DNA from: an uncultured Actinomycetota bacterium
Lineage (GTDB): Bacteria; Actinomycetota; Actinomycetes; Mycobacteriales; Mycobacteriaceae
Length of the DNA stretch: 64,000 nt
NCBI GenBank assembly: GCA_963815705.1
Contig: CAWFHQ010000007.1
Coordinates: 170,687 to 234,686 of the forward strand
Direction of reading: 5' to 3'
Each line of letters begins with the position of its first letter. The first letter of the stretch is position 1. The translations under genes were made by a program, and so were the position numbers. Positions 29,857 through 38,335 of this stretch are shown piece after piece. The notes beneath the pieces were generated by a model. It saw nothing but the letters and a program-made list of their open reading frames with translations. It had not been told where the DNA came from and did not search any database.

Positions 29857-30273
29857 TCAGGCTGCCGAACGCGGGCCTACCTGTGCGATCGGCAGGTGCA
29901 GCACCACCGTGGGCGTTCCGATGGCCTCGTGCTCGCTGCGTGCCAACAACGCCGCGTTCTCGGGGAGCTGCCGGGAGCTGATCTCGCCGGCGGCGATGCG
30001 TCGCAGGATTTCGTGGGCTCGAGCAAGCTGCTCGCGCTTCCGGTACTGGCCGCCGGGAAGTTTGACGCCGGCCCAGACTCCGTATTCCTCCCGATGTGCG
30101 ATCGCGTGCTGGGCGCACCGCCGCTGCTGTGCCAACGGGCAGCGACGCAGGCATTGGATCCGCGCCTCGGTGGCCGACCGCTCGTAGGCACGCGCCTTGG
30201 CCGCGCCGTCACCACTGTCGTCGTCGGGGTAGCCGAACCACAGCTCCGGGTCGGTTGCGCAGGGGTGTCCCAT
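29857..30273 (-). CDS. whiB5: WhiB-family Fe-S transcription factor, WhiB5-like
   Basis: 138 aa from ATG 30273, preceded by AGGAG: MGHPCATDPELWF..IQCLRRCPLAQQRRCAQHAIAHREEYGVWAGV.. It has four Cys with C-X3-C spacing rather than C-X2-C, as I recall for WhiB5, and sits divergent from the Rv0023-like gene. Confidence 0.85.
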   Translation of the reverse strand: MGHPCATDPELWFGYPDDDSGDGAAKARAYERSATEARIQCLRRCPLAQQRRCAQHAIAHREEYGVWAGVKLPGGQYRKREQLARAHEILRRIAAGEISSRQLPENAALLARSEHEAIGTPTVVLHLPIAQVGPRSAA

Positions 30274-30294
30274 TTCGGTCTCCTTGTCTGGGAT

Positions 30295-30362
30295 GAAACG
30301 TAGGCAAAAGCGTATATCTAATAGGCCGCCCCGTGCAAGAGAAACGTGACAGAAACGTATAT
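30295..30362. promoter_or_regulatory. direct repeats in the whiB5/XRE divergent promoter region (GAAACGT x3, CGTATAT x2)
   Basis: GAAACGT occurs at 30295, 30341 and 30352. CGTATAT occurs at 30311 and 30356. The segment is locally AT-rich. Confidence 0.4.
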
Positions 30363-30393
30363 ACATAGCGATAGGGCCCGGCGTGTGTAATAT

Positions 30394-30417: not shown

Positions 30418-31206
30418 GTGAGCCGTGAATCGGCAGGTGCGGCCATCCGTGCATTGCGTGAGTCGCGCGATTGGTCCTTAGCGGAGCTTGCTGCCGCGAC
30501 GGGCGTCAGCATAATGGGACTGAGCTATCTGGAGCGCGGCGCCCGCAAGCCGCACAAAAGTACAGTTCAGAAGGTTGAAAACGGCCTGGGCCTGCCGCCG
30601 GGCACCTACTCGCGGTTGTTGGTGGCCGCCGATCCGGACGCCGAGCTGGCCCGATTGATCGCTGCGCAGCCCCCCGAAACAATGTCTCCGCGAGGCGCCG
30701 GGGCGGTGGTCGTCGACCGACACAGCGACACCGAAGTGCTGGAAGGTTATGCCGAAGCCCAACTCGATGCCCTCAAATCCGTCATCGATCGGCTGCCAGC
30801 GACGACATCAAACGAATATGAGACGTATATTCTCTCTGTGATCGCGCAGTGCGTGAAGGCGGAGATGCTTGCGGCCAGCTCGTGGCGCGTGGCCGTGAAC
30901 GCCGGCGCTGACTCGACCGACCGGCTGATGGAGCATCTGAAAGCCCTCGAGGAGACGCGCGGCGCTCTGCTGAAGCGGATGCCGACCAGCTTGAGCGCGC
31001 GTTTCGACCGGGCTTGTGCGCAGTCATCGCTGCCCGACGCGATCATCGCGGCACTGCTCGGCGTGAGCAGTGACGAAATGTGGGATATCCGCAATCGTGG
31101 GGTGATCCCCGCAGGGGTACTCCCCCGCGTCCGTGCGTTCGCCGACGCGATGGAGCGGCCGGACGAAGACAGCACAGGTCAGGACAGCGGCGAGGGGGAC
31201 CGATGA
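30418..31206 (+). CDS. XRE-family helix-turn-helix transcriptional regulator (Rv0023-like)
   Basis: 262 aa with a GTG start. The N-terminal HTH is IRALRESRDWSLAELAAATGVSIMGLSYLERGARKPHKSTVQKVENGL. Confidence 0.85.
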   Translation: MSRESAGAAIRALRESRDWSLAELAAATGVSIMGLSYLERGARKPHKSTVQKVENGLGLPPGTYSRLLVAADPDAELARLIAAQPPETMSPRGAGAVVVDRHSDTEVLEGYAEAQLDALKSVIDRLPATTSNEYETYILSVIAQCVKAEMLAASSWRVAVNAGADSTDRLMEHLKALEETRGALLKRMPTSLSARFDRACAQSSLPDAIIAALLGVSSDEMWDIRNRGVIPAGVLPRVRAFADAMERPDEDSTGQDSGEGDR

Positions 31207-32027
31207 CCGACAGCGACATCGAGGCGTTGAGCCGCGCACATCAGTTGTTCGCCGGGAGCACCCAGCAGCCAACTCTCGACGCACCCTACCGCGCATCGAA
31301 CCGAATCATCGCACGCAATGATGTTGTGGGACAGGACAATTACCAATCCAGGGTAAACCGAAGCCATGAGGCGCTGCTCTCGTCAGCGCGCACGGATACC
31401 GCGGCGGCGCGCGTCATCGCCGGTGCCCACCGGGACCGGGCGCAGGCGCGTGAGCTGACCAGGAACGTCCTCGACGAGGCGCGCGCCGACGCCGCCGCTC
31501 CCCCGATCACGCCGATTGCCCAGCGCGAGGCGATGCGCCGTCGGGCCGCGAGGCTTCGGGCACAACATGCACATGTGTTGGCCGCCCGGCTACGCGCTCG
31601 ACGGCATTCGGCGGCGCTGCGGGTCCTGCGTTACCGAATGCTGCACCACCACGGTCCGGGATTGGCCGGACTGCGGCTGTCACCGCCGAGTAGCCGTGCC
31701 GGAATTGCGGTGCGCGCGGCGCTATCCCGATTGGGCCGGCCCTATGTCTGGGGCGCGACCGGTCCCGATCAGTTCGACTGTTCCGGGCTGGTCCAGTGGT
31801 CCTACGCGCAGGCGGGAATCCATCTGGACCGCACCACGTATCAGCAGATCAACGACGGAATCCCAGTGCCCCGGTCGCAAGTCAGGCCCGGCGATCTCGT
31901 GTTCCCGCACACGGGACACGTACAGATCGCGATCGGCAACAACCTCGTCGTCGAAGCGCCCTATTCGGGTGCCTCGGTACGGATCAGCCAGCTGGGCAAC
32001 TACGTCGCGATTCGCCGCCCGATATGA
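31203..32027 (+). CDS. NlpC/P60 peptidoglycan endopeptidase without a signal peptide (Rv0024-like)
   Basis: 274 aa from ATG 31203, with an ATGA overlap onto the XRE stop. The C-terminal domain is ..GRPYVWGATGPDQFDCSGLVQWSYAQAG..GDLVFPHTGHVQIAIG.. (catalytic Cys and His). The N-terminal 150 aa are helical and charged with no hydrophobic leader. Confidence 0.9.
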   Translation: MTDSDIEALSRAHQLFAGSTQQPTLDAPYRASNRIIARNDVVGQDNYQSRVNRSHEALLSSARTDTAAARVIAGAHRDRAQARELTRNVLDEARADAAAPPITPIAQREAMRRRAARLRAQHAHVLAARLRARRHSAALRVLRYRMLHHHGPGLAGLRLSPPSSRAGIAVRAALSRLGRPYVWGATGPDQFDCSGLVQWSYAQAGIHLDRTTYQQINDGIPVPRSQVRPGDLVFPHTGHVQIAIGNNLVVEAPYSGASVRISQLGNYVAIRRPI

Positions 32028-32042
32028 GATTAGGTTGAACGT

Positions 32043-32405
32043 ATGTCGGAACAAACCGGCCCTTCGCTAGCCGCGATTGCGGCGCGGCAGTCGGCGATGG
32101 CGACCCAGCACCGCTCGGTCGCCGAGGCAGACCGTGTGCTGATGGAGGTGCTGGCCAGTGCGCATGCCGCGATGCGGGAGAGCATCGCGCGGCTGGACGC
32201 AATCGCCGACGAGATCGAGCGTGGTGTTCCGCACCGGGCGAGCCTGGCCGTCGATAGTCCTATGGGCGCGCGCGAGTTTCAGAAGTTTCTGGTTGCCAAG
32301 CAACGTGAGATCGCGGCGGTCGTGGCGGACGCGCACGATCTCGATCGCGCGAAAACGGCTGTGCTGGAAAGCCTGCGGGACCAGTACGGCGCATCATCGG
32401 GCTAA
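32043..32405 (+). CDS. small helical protein, Rv0025-like (DUF4226-like as I recall)
   Basis: 120-aa ORF with an ATG start. It is a paralogue of the middle of the next ORF ([20 protein letters not shown] versus GARDFQRFLIGKLRDIRAVV). Confidence 0.7.
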
Positions 32406-32532
32406 CGCCGGGGTGTTCATCCACAGCCGCATCGCGGTGAATTGTCGACGGCTTGGAGCCTCAGTACTGTCACCGGGCATGGAGGGGTCGCGACACCGCC
32501 CGCGTTGGGGCGCAGCGCCGTTTGGCTAGCCG

Positions 32533-33972
32533 ATGTCGACGTATGACGAGCTGCTGGCCACAGTCAGAGCCGTGCGCGACCGCGCGGGCGACCCGAACGC
32601 GTGGCAGACCGGGTTGACGCCGACAGAGCTGGCCGCCGTGGTCACCCCCACGACACGTCCACAACAACTCGACGGGATCCTGGCCAAGATCCGCCAACAA
32701 CATCCGGACATGTTCGGCCCCAACGCGACACCGGCTGGCCCTCCGCGGGTGCCGAATCCACCTCAGGGAGATCGAGAGCAGGGCGCCGCGGCCGAAGCCA
32801 TAGCGGGTGCCGAAGCTGCTCTAGCACATCAGAATTCGGCGAGCTCTCAGCTCGACCTGCAAGTGATTTCGGCCATCATGAATGCCCATTTGCGGACCGT
32901 CGACGGCGCAGAAGCGTTGGGCGCGTTGCAGCGCGAGACCGAAGCCGCGGTGCAAACTCGATCGGACCTGGACACTCCGGCGGGAGCTCGTGACTTCCAG
33001 CGATTCTTGATCGGCAAGCTCAGAGACATCCGCGCGGTCGTGATGAACGCCAGCCTGGACGACACGTCGAAATCAGCACTGATGGCGGCATGGACATCGC
33101 TGTACGACGTCTCGAAGACCGTGCCGAGCGGTGCCGGCGAAAGCAAGCCGGCATCGGTGGTGGCCCCGGTTGCCGCACCCGTGCGCGACAGTGGTCAACA
33201 ACCGCCTGACGCGGCCGGCGCCGGATGGGATCCCCTACTGGATCCGCTGCTGACCGACGATCCCGGACTGCTGGGCGAGGATTCGGGCCAGGGTCCGCGC
33301 GAGAGCGCGGCGGCTCCCACGATGCCGTCGTCGCTGCCGGGCATTCCCAACGTTGGGCTGGGGTCGACGCCCGGGCCGGGTTCGATGGCCGGCTGGGGCA
33401 CGCCCAGCGGGTTGGCGCTTCCCGGGCGCGAGGGGGGCGGCGAAACCGATCCGGCGCTCGGTGGTCTGGACGACGAGGCCCTCGACGAGGACCCGGCCGA
33501 TGACGAGGATGCCGACAAACGCAAAGACAACGACCACGGCCAGGACGTGTCAACGGCGGAATCACCGCCGGCGGGCCCGACGACGGTGACTTTGCCCGAC
33601 GGTGAGATGGTGACGGCTGCCAGCCCGCAGCTGGCGGCGGCCATCCAGGCAGCGGTGGGCGGCGCGTCGATCCCGGATGCCTTCCATCAGCAGGGCATCA
33701 CCATTCCCGCACCGGGAACCGCGGTGGCCAATCCGGTCGATCCGGTTCAGGTCGGACCGGGAGATATCGGGATTTTCACCGATCGCCATGCGCTGGCCCT
33801 CGGCCACAGCAAGGCCCTGCTGGATGGCCAGATTCAGCACATCGCCACCGTAAGCGGCGCGAGCTTTCTAGGCTGGGAGCATCCGCCGGCCGCGGCCACC
33901 GCGACCGCGCCGGCCAGGACCGACGCACCGACACCAACTCGGCCGGCGGCGACGCCGACCACGCGACAATAG
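32533..33972 (+). CDS. Rv0026-like protein: DUF4226-like helical region, Pro/Gly/Asp-rich linker, degenerate P60-like C-terminus
   Basis: 479-aa ORF. The C-terminal ..VQVGPGDIGIFTDRHALALGHSKALLDGQIQHI.. aligns by eye with the ..VRPGDLVFPHTGHVQIAIGNNLVVEAP.. segment of the neighbouring P60, but I see no DCSG-type cysteine block. Confidence 0.75.
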   Translation: MSTYDELLATVRAVRDRAGDPNAWQTGLTPTELAAVVTPTTRPQQLDGILAKIRQQHPDMFGPNATPAGPPRVPNPPQGDREQGAAAEAIAGAEAALAHQNSASSQLDLQVISAIMNAHLRTVDGAEALGALQRETEAAVQTRSDLDTPAGARDFQRFLIGKLRDIRAVVMNASLDDTSKSALMAAWTSLYDVSKTVPSGAGESKPASVVAPVAAPVRDSGQQPPDAAGAGWDPLLDPLLTDDPGLLGEDSGQGPRESAAAPTMPSSLPGIPNVGLGSTPGPGSMAGWGTPSGLALPGREGGGETDPALGGLDDEALDEDPADDEDADKRKDNDHGQDVSTAESPPAGPTTVTLPDGEMVTAASPQLAAAIQAAVGGASIPDAFHQQGITIPAPGTAVANPVDPVQVGPGDIGIFTDRHALALGHSKALLDGQIQHIATVSGASFLGWEHPPAAATATAPARTDAPTPTRPAATPTTRQ

Positions 33973-34017: not shown

Positions 34018-34335
34018 ATGGCAGATCGAATCCAGGTGGTGCCCGCGCACTTACGTGAAGCCGCTGCGCGTCACCAGGAAACCTCCGAGTACCTGCGCAC
34101 CATTCCGTCGTCGCATGCCGCCATCCAGGAGAGCCTGGACTCACTGGGGCCGATCTTCGGTGAACTTCGCGACGCCGGACGCGAACTGCTTGACCTCCGG
34201 CGCCAGTGCTACGAGCAACAGGCGGACGACCACGCCGACATGGCGCACAACCTGACTGTGTCGGCCAGGACTTGGGATCAGCATGAACAAGATGCGGGCG
34301 GCCAACTCGGCCGCATCGTCGACGGCGGTCGATGA
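34018..34335 (+). CDS. about 100-aa helical protein, Rv0027-like, EspC/'ESX secretion-associated' type
   Basis: 105 aa with an ATG preceded by GGAGA: MADRIQVVPAHLREAAARHQETSEYL..SLDSLGPIFGELRD.. It has the opening '..I.V.P..L..AA..H' typical of EspC-like hairpins. Confidence 0.7.
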   Translation: MADRIQVVPAHLREAAARHQETSEYLRTIPSSHAAIQESLDSLGPIFGELRDAGRELLDLRRQCYEQQADDHADMAHNLTVSARTWDQHEQDAGGQLGRIVDGGR

Positions 34336-34643
34336 CAGACGCCAATCCCGCGTTCGACACCGTTCACCCGAGTGGGCACATCCTGGTCCGCTCGTGTCGC
34401 GGCGGGTACATGCACAGCGTTGCGCTGAGTGAAGAGGCGATGGATACCGACGCCGCGACCCTGGCCCAGGGCATTCTGCTGACCGCGGATGTGTCTTGGC
34501 TCAAAGCGTTGCTGGAAGTTCGGGAGGAGATCGTGGCGGCCGGACACACCCCGTCGGCGGAGGTTCCGACCCCGCATGACCTCGATGCGGCGATCGAGAA
34601 CCTGCTGGCGCACAAACTGCGCCGCCGCGACGGCGCGGACTAG
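34332..34643 (+). CDS. YbaB/EbfC-fold small protein, Rv0028-like (EspL-like)
   Basis: 103 aa with an ATGA overlap onto the previous ORF: ..GHILVRSCRGGYMHSVALSEEAMDTDAATLAQGILLTADVSWLKA.. The pattern of a beta-rich core followed by a helix is YbaB-like. Confidence 0.7.
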   Translation: MTDANPAFDTVHPSGHILVRSCRGGYMHSVALSEEAMDTDAATLAQGILLTADVSWLKALLEVREEIVAAGHTPSAEVPTPHDLDAAIENLLAHKLRRRDGAD

Positions 34644-34653
34644 CTCGCCGCGT

Positions 34654-34797
34654 CTAGATCAGCCAAGTTTTGGCGGCATCGGGATCCGGTGCGATATCGC
34701 CCGGTGGCTCGATGGGATTGGCGCCGAACAACTCTCGTGCGCGGCCGAGCATGGCACGCACCTCGTCGAGTTGCTGCTGCAGCGCAGAATCAGCCAT
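34654..34797 (-). CDS. candidate 47-aa ORF on the opposite strand, inside the cluster (below the ORF-track size cutoff)
   Basis: My translation is MADSALQQQLDEVRAMLGRARELFGANPIEPPGDIAPDPDAAKTWLI*. GC3 is only about 67% and I see no clear Shine-Dalgarno sequence, so support is weak. Confidence 0.25.
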   Translation of the reverse strand: MADSALQQQLDEVRAMLGRARELFGANPIEPPGDIAPDPDAAKTWLI

Positions 34798-34879: not shown

Positions 34880-36397
34880 GTGGCGATCTTCGGTCGAAAG
34901 ACGGCGCGCCAGCGCCTCCGGAGAGCTACCCGGGAATCATTGTCGATGCCGGCCTTCAGCTCTCCTGTCGATTGCACCCCCTGGGTGATCGGTGGGCTTT
35001 GGCCTGCCGAACTGTCGACGGCGACCGACGAAACCGCCACGCTCGCACAGTGTCTCGAGAAGGATCTGCAGCGAATCACCAGCAGCGCCAACGACGAGCT
35101 GAGGATGGTCAAGCGGTCCGGACTCACCGATACGGCCCGGCACGCGGCAGAGGCCAAAGTCATCGACGAAGCCCGCGCCCGCGCCGTGCGGCGAGTGGAA
35201 TCGACAATTCGCCAACTGGACATGATGAAGGCGCAGATGCGTGCGCGGCGTCAAACCGCGCAGGTCGCGCGGCGTTATAGCGAGGCCGATATCGAGCGGA
35301 CGCAAGTCATCCCGGTGGTCGCGGCGGCGGAGCCCGCAATCGCTGATCCGACGCTCGATCAGACGCAGGTGATCCCAGTCGTCGCGGCAGAACCCGTCGC
35401 CGACGAGCCCGCGGCCGCTGCCGCTGCCGCTGCCGAGGAGCCTGCGGCGGACGTGTCAGCCGATGAGGACGACGAGGCCAAAGCTTCGGTGGGCCGGCAT
35501 CGGCTTCCGTCCGCGGCGGTCACTGCGGTCGTCGCAGTTCCGCCGGAGCCAGAGCCCGCGCCAGAACCTGAGCCCGCGCCAGAACCTGAGCCCGAGCCCG
35601 AGCCAGAACCTGAGCCCGAGCCAGAACCTGAGCCCGAGCCCGAGCCCGAGCCTGAGCCCGAGCCCGAGCCCGAACCGGAACCCGAACCGGAACCGGAACC
35701 TGAGCCCGAGCCGGAACCTGCTGAAGCTCCGGCGGTCTCCGTCGATACCGAATCCGACACGGAACGGCTGCACCGGCTGCTGGCGTTCGTGGTGCGCCAA
35801 GAACCACAGCTGAACTGGGCAGTCGGTGACCTCGCGGACGGCACGACGCTGCTGGTCACCGACCTCGCTCACGGCTGGATTCCGCCGGGGATCGCGCTTC
35901 CCGTGGGCGTGCGATTGTTGGCGCCGGGACGGCGCGCCGGCAAAGCCTCGGCGCTGCTCGGCGAGGCGACCCGGACCGCGACCTATACCCCCGGCGATCC
36001 GGTCGGCCGGTCGACAGACTTCGCCGAGACCGAGTCCTCGGTGCAGGCGCGCGAGCTGCCCGCAGTCGAAGACCTGGGGTGGGAGCTGGGTCGACTCACG
36101 CACTGGCGCGACGGAATACCACGGTTGGTACACACCCTGGCGAAAGCCGCCACTGCGGGAACTGGTGTCGTGGAAGAGGAAGCCGACCTGCTGCGGGTGC
36201 ATCTCGACACCGCCCGCTACCAGCTCCTGAGCCAGTATCCGGACGCCGAGTCTGCGCTGCTGCTGAATTGCCTGCTACTGGCCGCGACCGAAAGCAGTGT
36301 CGCCGGCGACACCACCTCGGCCAACTATCACCTGGCGTGGTTCCAAAAACTCGATGAGCCGCCGGCCAGCCAGTGGACCACGGACCCGTCGGAGTAA
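34880..36397 (+). CDS. Rv0029-like protein with an internal (Pro-Glu)n linker
   Basis: 505-aa ORF with a GTG start. The N-terminal region is helical and basic. A duplicated TQVIPVVAA(A)EP unit is followed by about 59 aa of PE/PA dipeptides, then the conserved C-terminal domain ..[31 protein letters not shown]... Confidence 0.8.
35543..35719 (+). repeat. in-frame hexanucleotide microsatellite (GAG/GAA-CCN)n encoding (Pro-Glu)n
   Basis: 177 nt of ccg gag cca gag ccc .. cct gag ccc gag ccg gaa cct. It translates to [20 protein letters not shown]...PEPEPEPEP. Confidence 0.9.
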
Positions 36398-36466
36398 TCG
36401 GGCAGGCGCCGCTCAAATCCCCCAAATCGTGAATTGACGCTGGTTGGAGGGGTCGATGATACTGAC

Positions 36467-36787
36467 ATGGTGTCGGGGTCGGGCGGTCGCACGAATCTGA
36501 GCGATAAGGATCTCGTCGAGTCGGTTCTGCGTGAACTGAGCGAGGCGGCTGACAAGTGGGAAGCCCTTGTCGCGCAAGCCGAGACGATCACGTACAGCGT
36601 GGACTTGGGGGATATTCGTGCCGTGGCAAATTCCGACGGCAAGTTGGTTGAGCTGACGCTGCATCCGGGCGTGATGACCGGCTACGCCCACGCAGCGCTG
36701 GCTGACAGGTTGAACCTCGCGATCGCGGCGCTGCGCGAGGAGGCAGAAGCCGAGAATCGGGCGAGGTACGGCGACGAGCTGCACTGA
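36467..36787 (+). CDS. YbaB/EbfC-fold small protein, Rv0030-like
   Basis: 106 aa from ATG 36467, with GGAGGGG at 36446-36452 (the ORF track offers TTG 36434). The sequence ..ITYSVDLGDIRAVANSDGKLVELTLHPGVMTGYAHAALADRLNLAIAALREEA.. shows the YbaB-like pattern. Confidence 0.7.
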   Translation: MVSGSGGRTNLSDKDLVESVLRELSEAADKWEALVAQAETITYSVDLGDIRAVANSDGKLVELTLHPGVMTGYAHAALADRLNLAIAALREEAEAENRARYGDELH

Positions 36788-36832: not shown

Positions 36833-38335
36833 ATGACCGTGCCACTCAATTTGTCCAACCGGGACCAGAATTCGGGGCACCTGTTCTACAACCGGCGGCT
36901 GCGTGCCGCGATCACCCGGTTTTCCGTCCGGATGAAGCACGACGACCGTAAACAGCAAGCGGCCGTGGCGCTGTCGATCGTGCTTGTGGTCATCGGCATC
37001 GGGTGGATGGCGCTGCTTCATGTCATGAAGCCGTCGGGGTTGGTCGGCCATTCGTCGATCATCGGCGACCGCGATACCGGCGCGGTCTACGCGAAGATCA
37101 ACGGTCGGCTCTACCCCGCGCTCAACTTGACTTCGGCACGATTGGCGGTCGGGAGCGCGGGCTCTCCGACTTGGGTCAAAGCCAACGAGATCGCCAAGTA
37201 TCCGACCGGCCCGATCATCGGGATTCCCGGTGCGCCGGACAGCTTGCCGGTCACGGCGAGCGCCGAATCGGCGTGGTCGGTCTGCGACGCCGCGGCCGCC
37301 CGCGGCAGTGGGACCGCTCCGGTGGTGACCTCCATCGCCGGCCAGCTCTCCCCCATCGGCCGGTCGGAGCCGATGGGCCCGAAGCAGGCCATCCTGGCGA
37401 CCCACAAGGGCGCAACGTATGTGATCTGGCGAGGCCAACGCTCCCGCATCGACCCCGCGGACCGATCGGTGACATTCAACCTCGGCCTCGACCCCGGGGT
37501 GACCTACCCGATCGAAATCTCCAACGCCCTGTTCGACGCCATGCCCTCAACGGAACCCTTTGTGCTGCCTACGATTCCGGGTCGTGGGACCCCGTCGCGC
37601 TGGGTGCCGGGTTCGATTGTGGGCAGGGTGCTGGAAACCCGTGACGCCAGCGGCACCGTCAACGGCTTCTATGTGCTGCTGCCGGACGGCGTGCAGAAAA
37701 TCACCGGCTTCGTCGCGGACCTCTTGCGGACCGCGGATTCAGAGGGTTCGACGACGCCTACCCTGGTCGCGCCCGACAAACTGATTCAAATCCCGGTGGT
37801 CGATGTGCTCGACGTCGACTACTATCCGTCGGAGAAGCTGGATTTCGTTGACACCGCGGCGAATCCGGCAACCTGCGTGGGATGGCAGAAGCAATCGGGT
37901 GATCCGCAGGCCAGGATCACGATCTTCACCGGCCGGGGATTGCCGGTTCCGATCGGCATGGATTCCCGCCTGGTTCGGTTGGTTCGCGACGACCGCGACC
38001 CCAATTCCGCTGAGGCGCAACAGACGTTGGTGTTACCGGGTGCGGCGAACTTCGTGACGACCACCAGCGGCGTCGCGACGGCCGACAGCCGGGAATCTTT
38101 GTATTGGATTTCACCGCAAGGTGTTCGATACGGCATCCAATCGGATCACGCGACCTTGCAGGCGCTGGGGCTGGATCCGCGGCTGGCTGTGCAAGCACCC
38201 TGGCCGATCGTGCGTACCTTCGCGACCGGGCCCGCGATTGGGCGTGACGCCGCCCTAGTGGCGCGCGACGCTGTCACCGGGGGCGGTGCCGTGGCGCCGA
38301 TTCCCGATCTCAATGAACTGGCGGGCGGGGGTTAA
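36833..38335 (+). CDS. eccB: type VII secretion system protein EccB
   Basis: 500 aa with an ATG preceded by AAAGGAG. The N-terminus ..SGHLFYNRRLRAAITRFSVRMKHDDRKQQ.. is followed by a single TM helix (AAVALSIVLVVIGIGWMALLHVM) and a large extracytoplasmic domain with EccB-typical blocks (..YAKINGRLYPALNLTSARL..YWISPQGVRYGI..). Confidence 0.9.
   Translation: MTVPLNLSNRDQNSGHLFYNRRLRAAITRFSVRMKHDDRKQQAAVALSIVLVVIGIGWMALLHVMKPSGLVGHSSIIGDRDTGAVYAKINGRLYPALNLTSARLAVGSAGSPTWVKANEIAKYPTGPIIGIPGAPDSLPVTASAESAWSVCDAAAARGSGTAPVVTSIAGQLSPIGRSEPMGPKQAILATHKGATYVIWRGQRSRIDPADRSVTFNLGLDPGVTYPIEISNALFDAMPSTEPFVLPTIPGRGTPSRWVPGSIVGRVLETRDASGTVNGFYVLLPDGVQKITGFVADLLRTADSEGSTTPTLVAPDKLIQIPVVDVLDVDYYPSEKLDFVDTAANPATCVGWQKQSGDPQARITIFTGRGLPVPIGMDSRLVRLVRDDRDPNSAEAQQTLVLPGAANFVTTTSGVATADSRESLYWISPQGVRYGIQSDHATLQALGLDPRLAVQAPWPIVRTFATGPAIGRDAALVARDAVTGGGAVAPIPDLNELAGGG

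Follow-up and report, generated by a model that had tools for sequence, protein, structure and literature searches.

The stretch of DNA analysed here (the window, 64,000 nucleotides of contig CAWFHQ010000007.1, from an uncultured member of the Mycobacteriaceae) contains a gene for a predicted NlpC/P60 cell-wall endopeptidase without an export leader, which is the orthologue of RipE (Rv0024) of Mycobacterium tuberculosis. This orthology rests on synteny. The window is oriC-proximal chromosome of a slow-growing Mycobacterium, in which dnaN, gyrB and gyrA are followed by pknB-pknA-pbpA-rodA-pstP and later by an LpqN-like gene and leuS, which is also the layout of Rv0001-Rv0041 in M. tuberculosis. 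The closest named relatives belong to the M. simiae group. Identity to the window was 89% for RipE in M. montefiorense and 72-96% for the module proteins of the M. ahvazicum locus. The plus-strand gene run containing RipE is bounded by a divergent WhiB gene and by a remnant of an ESX (type VII secretion) locus (Table 1). Within this run, three consecutive genes carry a DUF4226 domain: with an active P60 domain in RipE, alone in a small protein, and with a dead P60 fold in a protein of 479 residues. The gene shares with RipE of M. tuberculosis its position near oriC (dnaN, gyrBA, pknB, then WhiB, XRE and P60), its length class, the DCSG motif, the Cys-His-Glu triad and the restriction to slow-growing mycobacteria. 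Of the five NlpC/P60 proteins of the Rip group in M. tuberculosis, RipE has been studied least (PMC12067865, PMC3987819).

The catalytic domain of RipE matched Pfam NLPC_P60 with 79.7 bits (cut-off 23, E 1.9e-22). The triad is formed by Cys193 (nucleotide 31779), His239 (31917) and Glu251 (31953), which lie in the motifs FDCSGLV, TGHVQ and VVEAP, and all three residues were invariant across 22 RipE orthologues. An earlier note on this DNA, made from the letters alone, had claimed an intact Cys/His P60 domain for the Rv0024-like protein, and both the Pfam match and the invariant triad support it. RipC (8idc, 1.8e-17), which ranked second, is among the best-matching solved structures, as are RipA and hydrolases of Tn916-like conjugative elements. 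RipE is predicted to be an active NlpC/P60 endopeptidase of the gamma-D-glutamyl-diaminopimelate (gamma-D-Glu-DAP) type. The ATG of RipE (31203-31205) overlaps the TGA stop of the XRE gene (31204-31206), as the same note had pointed out, and this overlap of 4 nucleotides (ATGA or GTGA) was present in 66 of 77 related loci. In these 66 loci, a purine-rich Shine-Dalgarno-like run of the GAGGGGGA type stands just before the overlap. The EspC-like and DUF2694 genes further downstream likewise overlap by 4 nucleotides (ATGA at 34332), and this second overlap is kept in 68 of the 77 loci.

The presence of an export leader was assessed by heuristics, namely Kyte-Doolittle means over 15 residues, N-terminal charge and a motif scan, with positive controls taken from the window itself. 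The maximal mean was 0.78 for the whole of RipE and 0.53 for its first 70 residues, compared with 2.78 for the transmembrane segment of EccB and 2.26 for the signal peptide of the LpqN-like protein. The first 15 residues have a net charge of -2, and the hydropathy, charge and motif scan of RipE revealed no hydrophobic leader, no twin-arginine motif and no lipobox. The sole in-frame start upstream, a GTG at 31080, would add 41 residues which are rich in Arg, Gly and Pro and have no hydrophobic core. Furthermore, no N-terminal extension occurs among the 120 homologue clusters listed, since all of them are 236-281 residues long and 115 fully cover the query from the same start. These heuristics agree with the absence of a Sec, Tat or lipoprotein leader that had been read from the sequence; neither a cryptic signal peptide nor an upstream start adding a leader, both of which had been raised as possibilities, was found for RipE. 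By the same simple measures, none of the proteins of the module appears to carry a Sec, Tat or lipoprotein leader.

The N-terminal part of RipE had been described as charged and helical over its first 150 residues or so, which is borne out by its model and its composition. In the AlphaFold2 model, helices were placed at residues 3-17, 33-98 and 104-148, of which the latter two form a long antiparallel hairpin with a predicted local distance difference test score (pLDDT) of 82-88, and the first 165 residues contain 28 Arg and Lys, 14 Asp and Glu and 32 Ala. Relatives of this N-domain amount to 58 clusters only, out of 1.84 billion representative proteins searched, and the family follows the pattern L.RAH.LFAG ... 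TD ... DHA ... VLD.AR.D ... DTPmGxREA.RR.ARLRAQ ... LRALRY. Four relatives retrieved by phmmer, P0257 (3.3e-14), P0262 (5.5e-13), P0286 (1e-5) and P0295 (7.3e-4), scored 23.5, 25.0, 24.7 and 27.9 bits, respectively, on Pfam DUF4226, for which the cut-off is 23.5 bits, and the relatives matching DUF4226 have the motif DTPmGxRE in common. Because these distant relatives reach the gathering score, the N-domain of RipE can be assigned to DUF4226 as a divergent member, an assignment which is transitive through the intermediate sequences. With DUF4226 before a P60-type fold in both proteins, RipE and the 479-residue protein are closer paralogues than the first reading had seen.

The RipE N-domain is not confined to P60 enzymes. 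Its relatives elsewhere carry NLPC_P60 or SLT lytic transglycosylase domains at their C-termini, and two further relatives end in regions without a Pfam match which, by eye only, are lysozyme-like and metallopeptidase-like. These fusions bear on the question of whether RipE leaves the cytoplasm. Some leaderless NlpC/P60 enzymes trim cytoplasmic substrates, and RipE could likewise stay inside and trim recycled muropeptides or peptidoglycan precursors, with the dead P60 protein buffering or regulating it; the lack of a leader from any possible start and the co-translation of the gene with a cytoplasmic DNA-binding regulator would fit such a role. However, the polymerised-glycan substrate of the SLT lytic transglycosylases lies outside the membrane, genes of this kind stand at the head of secretion loci (see below), and the closest solved P60 relatives, including RipC, RipA and the hydrolases of conjugative elements, are extracellular wall enzymes. 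A purely cytoplasmic role is disfavoured because of the SLT fusions, and we consider it quite improbable.

The C-terminus of the 479-residue protein had been aligned by eye with the His-containing half of the P60 domain and had been suspected to be a pseudo-enzyme. Our results revealed that the resemblance is real and spans almost the whole domain. The AlphaFold2 model of the protein has a mean pLDDT of 76, with 84-90 in the C-terminal core, and residues 349-452 are its last 105 or so ordered residues and are well conserved. The structural comparison with RipA-type P60 domains that the earlier note had proposed was made with Foldseek, and the top seven PDB matches were all NlpC/P60 proteins (Cg1735, RipA three times, TvNlpC1, TvNlpC2 and MepS), with E from 0.12 to 1.3; the top four had a probability of 0.91-0.93 and E of 0.12-0.20. 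An initial hhalign comparison of shallow alignments with the P60 domain of RipE gave P 0.009, in the register first proposed. The convincing alignment came after plasmid homologues had joined both profiles: its 79 columns, which extend from position 2 to position 105 of the 114 of the P60 profile, scored a probability of 88.9% with E 2.4e-6, while six unrelated profiles from the same locus, run as controls, gave P 0.12-0.80. It could be argued that the likeness arose by chance or convergence and that the domain is something else, as pairwise BLASTP between the RipE P60 domain and the 479-residue C-terminus was not significant, hmmsearch with the pseudo-P60 profile found no match among PDB sequences, Pfam recognised DUF4226 only and no P60 domain at E up to 0.1, and the top Foldseek E values were only 0.12-0.2. 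The collinear hhalign columns with their controls, the seven structural matches to a single family and the signature motifs in register (GD-hydrophobic...H...G) argue against this, and we regard it as extremely improbable.

The alignment also located what the dead domain has lost. A deletion of 16 residues falls at the exact place of PYVWGATGPDQFDCSGL in RipE, which agrees with the earlier remark that no counterpart of the Cys block was present. PGDIG is paired with PGDLV, and the histidine of a DRH motif, His419 (nucleotide 33787), with the catalytic His239. The position of the catalytic Glu of RipE falls in an alignment gap, so that only the His is kept. Since the deletion spans the Cys segment, the nucleophile was removed rather than substituted, and with the Cys segment deleted, the Glu position gapped and His419 alone retained, the domain is not an active member of the family. 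It was nevertheless 67-95% identical over 80 species, and its conservation exceeded that of the N-terminal part of the 479-residue protein. This conservation suggests a maintained pseudo-enzyme and not a decaying gene. Third-position G+C of the 479-residue gene falls to about 0.60 in the linker and the C-terminal domain.

The neighbourhood was sampled in 80 species-level related loci, with presence of each gene determined by tblastn. The WhiB, XRE, RipE, DUF4226, 479-residue, EspC-like and DUF2694 genes were each found in 78-80 of the 80 loci, the Rv0029-like gene in 75 and the DUF2710 gene in 63. However, eccB and eccC followed in 29 loci only, and in the loci lacking them the module runs straight into the MDMPI gene. 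This is different from the view of a 2025 review, in which the neighbourhood of ripE was called 'not conserved' and a link to ESX was not mentioned (PMC12067865). EccB and EccC are encoded on the same strand as RipE in the window, as had been noted, and together with a PE-like and a PPE protein they constitute the whole of its ESX locus. The closest solved relative of EccB is EccB5 (304 bits). Where the two proteins are present, they are full length and 70-98% identical (EccB 77-98%), and for these reasons they are not obvious pseudogenes. One related locus (L008) keeps the ESX remnant in part only. The unrelated genes beginning at 44132, past the PPE gene, encode MDMPI, MFS, SBF-like and LpqN-like proteins and LeuS.

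Several neighbours of RipE have relatives in ESX systems. The Rv0029-like protein matched the structure of Rv3899c (5IMU, E 1e-31), which has the same fold as the C-terminal chaperone domain by which EspK binds the EspB tip, and Rv0029 is among the structural relatives listed for it (PMC9811218). The DUF2710 protein has a weak match to the YbaB/EbfC family, which was labelled EspL-like in a 2026 paper (PMC13491425). A long and nearly perfect (Pro-Glu)n linker (about 35550-35740) separates the N-region of the Rv0029-like protein from DUF5632 and DUF5631, and it is the cause of spurious matches to unrelated repeat proteins. The tblastn position of its C-terminal domain shifts by several hundred bases among species, which may reflect a variable length of this linker.

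Table 1. Genes and domains around RipE in the window, in the order of their positions.
Feature	Position	Strand	Basis and occurrence
WhiB-family regulator, WhiB5/Rv0022c position	29857..30366	-	Pfam Whib E 5.6e-11; in 78/80 related loci; divergent from the XRE gene
XRE-family regulator, Rv0023 position	30418..31206	+	Pfam HTH_3 at residues 10-61, E 3.3e-12; a further ~200 residues form an uncharacterised C-terminal region
RipE/Rv0024-like leaderless NlpC/P60 endopeptidase (predicted), 274 residues	31203..32027	+	Pfam, conservation, hydropathy
RipE N-domain, helical hairpin, residues 33-148, assigned as divergent DUF4226	31299..31646	+	AlphaFold2 helices; relatives matching DUF4226
RipE catalytic NlpC/P60 domain, residues 178-266	31734..32000	+	Pfam E 1.9e-22
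DUF4226-only protein, 120 residues, Rv0025 position	32043..32405	+	Pfam DUF4226 E 6.3e-37; in 80/80 loci
479-residue protein, Rv0026 position: N-extension, DUF4226, Pro/Gly/Asp-rich linker, dead P60 fold	32533..33972	+	
DUF4226 domain of the 479-residue protein, residues 83-195	32779..33117	+	Pfam E 9.2e-38
Pseudo-P60 domain of the 479-residue protein, residues 349-452	33577..33888	+	AlphaFold2, Foldseek, hhalign, conservation
EspC-family small helical protein, Rv0027 position	34018..34335	+	Pfam T7SS_ESX_EspC E 3e-27
DUF2694 protein, Rv0028 position	34332..34643	+	Pfam E 4.6e-52
Rv0029-like protein, 505 residues: N-region, (Pro-Glu)n linker, DUF5632, DUF5631	34880..36397	+	Pfam; 5IMU match
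DUF2710 protein, weak YbaB/EbfC match	36434..36787	+	Pfam DUF2710 E 2.4e-52, YbaB_DNA_bd E 6.7e-4; in 63/80 loci
EccB, full length	36833..38335	+	Pfam E 1.9e-147; in 29/80 loci
EccC, single open reading frame of 1359 residues	38341..42420	+	End-to-end alignment with plasmid EccC; in 29/80 loci
PE-like small protein, 99 residues	42600..42899	+	Position, sequence, upstream GGAGGG
PPE protein	42906..44111	+	Pfam PPE E 7e-17; end of the ESX remnant

The same parts recur on ESX plasmids. The pseudo-P60 domain was found on 65 mycobacterial plasmids, and the gene is annotated DUF4226 wherever a named annotation exists. In three sampled ESX plasmids (pFLAC0070_1 of M. chimaera, pMchErm55 of M. chelonae and one plasmid of M. 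riyadhense), the gene order is DUF4226-pseudoP60, SLT, a third gene, eccB, eccCa, eccCb, PE and PPE, and it continues with two small genes at the esx position, espG, a gene of the MinD/ParA family and eccD; on two of the plasmids mycP follows. The third gene before eccB encodes an NlpC/P60 protein on two plasmids, and on pMchErm55 its product matched no Pfam family. In the plasmid of M. riyadhense, residues 65-156 matched DUF4226 with 24.0 bits in the SLT protein, above the cut-off of 23.5, and with 20.7 bits in the C40 protein, below it. The N-domain of the SLT/C40 type occurs twice on ten plasmids, and a homologue search with the plasmid SLT N-domain returned 8 proteins only. No N-terminal hydrophobic stretch was seen when the sequences of the sampled plasmid P60 proteins were read. 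Furthermore, pMUM001 has the same order as the window: pseudoP60, a type VII target, a small protein, a large protein that matches PE and PPE weakly, and YbaB, then an eccB remnant. The plasmid homologues of the pseudo-P60 domain are 35-49% identical to that of the window, and the plasmid P60 domains 41-52% identical to that of RipE. We infer plasmid ancestry of the ESX locus in the window from gene order and pseudo-P60 homology, as the identity between its EccB and those of the sampled plasmids is low, at about 35%.

Two observations on the plasmids stand apart from this comparison. The SLT and C40 N-domains of the M. riyadhense plasmid (L086 15501-17815) matched Pfam Phage_T7_Capsid with 28.6 and 26.2 bits (cut-off 27.1), and one homologue of this N-domain is named 'capsid assembly protein' in NCBI; the match is probably a coiled-coil artefact and illustrates how such proteins are mislabelled. 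Plasmid pMchErm55 also has the macrolide-resistance gene erm(55) (L085 1807-2616), about 11 kb from the head of its ESX locus.

On balance, we favour the explanation that RipE and its neighbours are a wall-remodelling cassette of plasmid-type ESX loci in chromosomal form, and we hold it with moderate confidence. Wall enzymes would reach the ESX machine by means of DUF4226, a hairpin for export or docking, and the hairpin of RipE would possibly bundle with those of the other two DUF4226 proteins, as in PE/PPE and Esx pairs. Once outside the membrane, RipE would cut peptide stems locally, so that a large apparatus spanning the envelope could be inserted or operated. The dead P60 may retain the binding of peptidoglycan or of a partner and may act as a targeting or regulatory subunit, by analogy with RipD. 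The XRE regulator would set the level of expression, and translation of RipE would depend on that of XRE via the overlapping stop and start. As the ESX part has decayed in this genome, the cassette would work with another ESX system or would have been domesticated for general wall remodelling.

A number of results weigh against this explanation. RipE itself had no Pfam DUF4226 (PF10774) match at E up to 0.1. The direct hhalign comparison of its N-domain with the DUF4226-only protein was collinear (TPmAQRE against TPmGAREF), but its P of 0.006 was equalled by the XRE control (P 0.006), and it was not used as evidence. Foldseek with the model of the N-domain returned only generic hairpins (Vipp1, IpaB and HlyD), all with E above 1, and no Esx, PE, PPE or EspB structure was among the matches. 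The motif scan found neither YxxxD/E nor WxG in RipE, the two DUF4226 proteins or the EspC-like protein, and the nearest to WxG in RipE is FAG at residues 16-18. The N-domain of RipE had no plasmid match by tblastn, and the EccB identity to the sampled plasmids is low, as given above. The ESX locus of the window lacks EccD, EccE, MycP, EspG and an Esx pair, eccB and eccC are missing from 51 of the 80 species that retain the hydrolase module, and the phenotypes cited for Rv0024 do not require ESX.

Type VII export of RipE, which had been suggested from the presence of EccB and EccC in the same strand run, is affected by several of these points. The plasmid order, with DUF4226 hydrolases directly before eccB, favours it; the missing YxxxD/E and WxG motifs do not. 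The adjacent EccB and EccC cannot be the general route, because the locus is incomplete and missing in 51 of 80 species. Such export is plausible but unproven, since the local ESX is a remnant and is absent from those 51 species. A broader form of the proposal can be made, in which DUF4226 is a carrier domain of mycobacterial type VII secretion for folded P60, SLT or other cargo without a Sec signal, i.e. a counterpart of the LXG domain of firmicutes, and in which the DUF4226-only and dead-P60 proteins pair with the hairpins of the active enzymes and restrain the hydrolase until it is placed. We offer this only tentatively, as something possible. If it were true, the RipE, Rv0025 and Rv0026 proteins of M. 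tuberculosis would together make up a single device of three parts that opens the wall and depends on ESX.

The occurrence of the module without ESX genes also allows another explanation, in which a former ESX cassette is now a housekeeping hydrolase whose remodelling of the wall serves growth, division or the formation of biofilm under the control of XRE and WhiB, and which is exported independently of ESX by an unrecognised signal, by piggy-back or in vesicles. The module is present in 78-80 of 80 species against 29 for eccB and eccC, no canonical type VII signal was found in RipE, and the module lies near the wall-growth genes pknB, pbpA and rodA. Over-expression of Rv0024 in M. smegmatis affected biofilm formation and drug tolerance, the latter towards wall-acting drugs (PMC12067865). 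However, the other genes of the conserved module are ESX-type accessories or uncharacterised DUFs, the genes for DUF4226 hydrolases abut eccB on the sampled ESX plasmids, and the motif and hydropathy scan showed no alternative export feature. We judge this explanation unlikely, though not negligible.

The interchangeable C-termini could also be understood in terms of attack. DUF4226 would then be a constant delivery domain, and the variable wall-degrading C-termini would be aimed at competitors or at a conjugation partner, as in the LXG toxins of firmicute type VII systems or in phage tail lysins, with the DUF4226-only and dead-P60 proteins as adaptors or protectors. The constant N-domain does occur with P60, SLT and other C-terminal domains, the RipE P60 domain resembles tail-associated lysins of phages in PHROGs, and the family is enriched on ESX plasmids, of which the related pRAW is conjugative (PMC4173767). 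A P60 protein of the SigM regulon in M. smegmatis was reported to be required for conjugation (cited in PMC13491425). On the other hand, no small immunity-like gene varies along with the catalytic domain, the cassette on the chromosome shows strict synteny and conservation instead of polymorphism, and matches in PADLOC and to toxin families were absent; delivery of effectors seems very unlikely to us. Two further candidates were rejected: anti-phage defence or a toxin-antitoxin system, as PADLOC matched only the helix-turn-helix of the XRE protein, and a prophage lysis cassette, as the only PHROGs match was that of the P60 domain to tail lysins and further phage genes were absent.

The wall-remodelling cassette that we favour can be compared with several known systems. 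ESX-P1 of the conjugative plasmid pRAW begins with two NLP/P60 genes (Ummels et al., 2014, PMC4173767). The module resembles such plasmid heads in that a leaderless helical N-domain joined to P60 or SLT stands directly before eccB, together with a DUF4226-pseudoP60 protein. However, the locus of the window is a remnant while the sampled plasmid loci are complete (pRAW being compared from its description), the P60 identity to RipE does not exceed the range given above, and the plasmid N-domains were not detectable from RipE by tblastn. The NlpC/P60 domain of RipD (Rv1566c) is not catalytic and is adapted to bind peptidoglycan (cited in PMC12067865), and like RipD the 479-residue protein has a conserved P60 fold despite the loss of catalytic residues. 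They differ in that RipD has a full fold with substituted residues and a signal peptide, whereas in the 479-residue protein the Cys segment is deleted, a leader is lacking and the P60 fold follows DUF4226 and a long Pro/Gly linker.

Other NlpC/P60 proteins have been linked to secretion machines. Mab_3664 and Mab_1832 of the SigM/ESX-4 regulon of M. abscessus were modelled as ESX substrates (PMC13491425). Compared by description only, these are similar to RipE in lying beside genes for small helical partners and YbaB/EspL-like proteins; however, they were modelled as PE/PPE-like pairs, and neither DUF4226 nor a dead-P60 paralogue was reported for them. VirB1 of type IV systems and CwlT of ICEBs1 are specialised wall hydrolases of trans-envelope machines (cited in PMC4173767, PMC4779608). 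The likeness is that lytic transglycosylase and NlpC/P60 endopeptidase activities are encoded with the machine served. Enzymes of the VirB1/CwlT type carry signal peptides or membrane anchors, whereas the DUF4226 proteins have neither. RipE also resembles RipC and CwlO, which are controlled by FtsEX, in the order of an N-terminal helical hairpin and an NlpC/P60 domain, and pipelines of the Joint Genome Institute (JGI) label RipE homologues 'CwlO'. However, the likeness is limited to the P60 domain, the hairpin sequences are unrelated, no ftsEX genes are nearby, and RipC and CwlO are exported by Sec.

What was already known is that Rv0024 is a P60 protein of slow growers, that ESX-P1 starts with P60 genes, that Rv0029 has an EspK-like fold and that dead P60 domains such as RipD exist. 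In the literature searched, we found no earlier report of the RipE N-domain as DUF4226, of DUF4226 as a common front module of several types of wall hydrolase beside eccB, of an Rv0026-type protein ending in a P60 fold with its Cys segment deleted, or of the RipE module heading an ESX remnant kept in about one third of related species. Papers on the evolution of ESX plasmids did not mention an orphan eccB-eccC beside Rv0029 for the terms tried, which is no proof of novelty. RipE thereby gains a context, namely a conserved ESX-type accessory module of seven to eight genes in which DUF4226 is shared with two neighbours, one of them a dead copy, and the proteins of DUF4226, Rv0025 and Rv0026 gain a first functional handle. 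The same context also suggests a way in which large machines for secretion or conjugation pass the peptidoglycan of mycobacteria. Should DUF4226 prove to be an export or docking signal, it would define a new class of type VII cargo that searches based on motifs have missed.

Some minor observations concern the region as a whole. Third-position G+C is 0.72-0.77 in the module genes between 30418 and 36787 (0.81 in the DUF2694 gene), compared with 0.78-0.89 in the closest flanking core genes, which would fit either a foreign origin or relaxed codon selection. The true start of the WhiB gene is probably downstream of that of its longest open reading frame. A scan for promoters and terminators was uninformative: it gave 2 promoter-like sites, where 0.7 would be expected, and 2 terminator-like sites, where 3.6 would be expected. 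Finally, an open reading frame of 47 residues on the minus strand (MADSALQQQLDEVRAMLGRARELFGANPIEPPGDIAPDPDAAKTWLI, 34654-34797) lies antisense in the gap of 236 nucleotides between the DUF2694 and Rv0029-like genes. Its motif RARELFG is similar to the N-terminal RAHQLFAG of RipE. By tblastn, this reading frame was present in 78 of the 80 loci; 60 of the matches were inspected and were 79-100% identical at the protein level and near full length. It is likely to be a real small gene.

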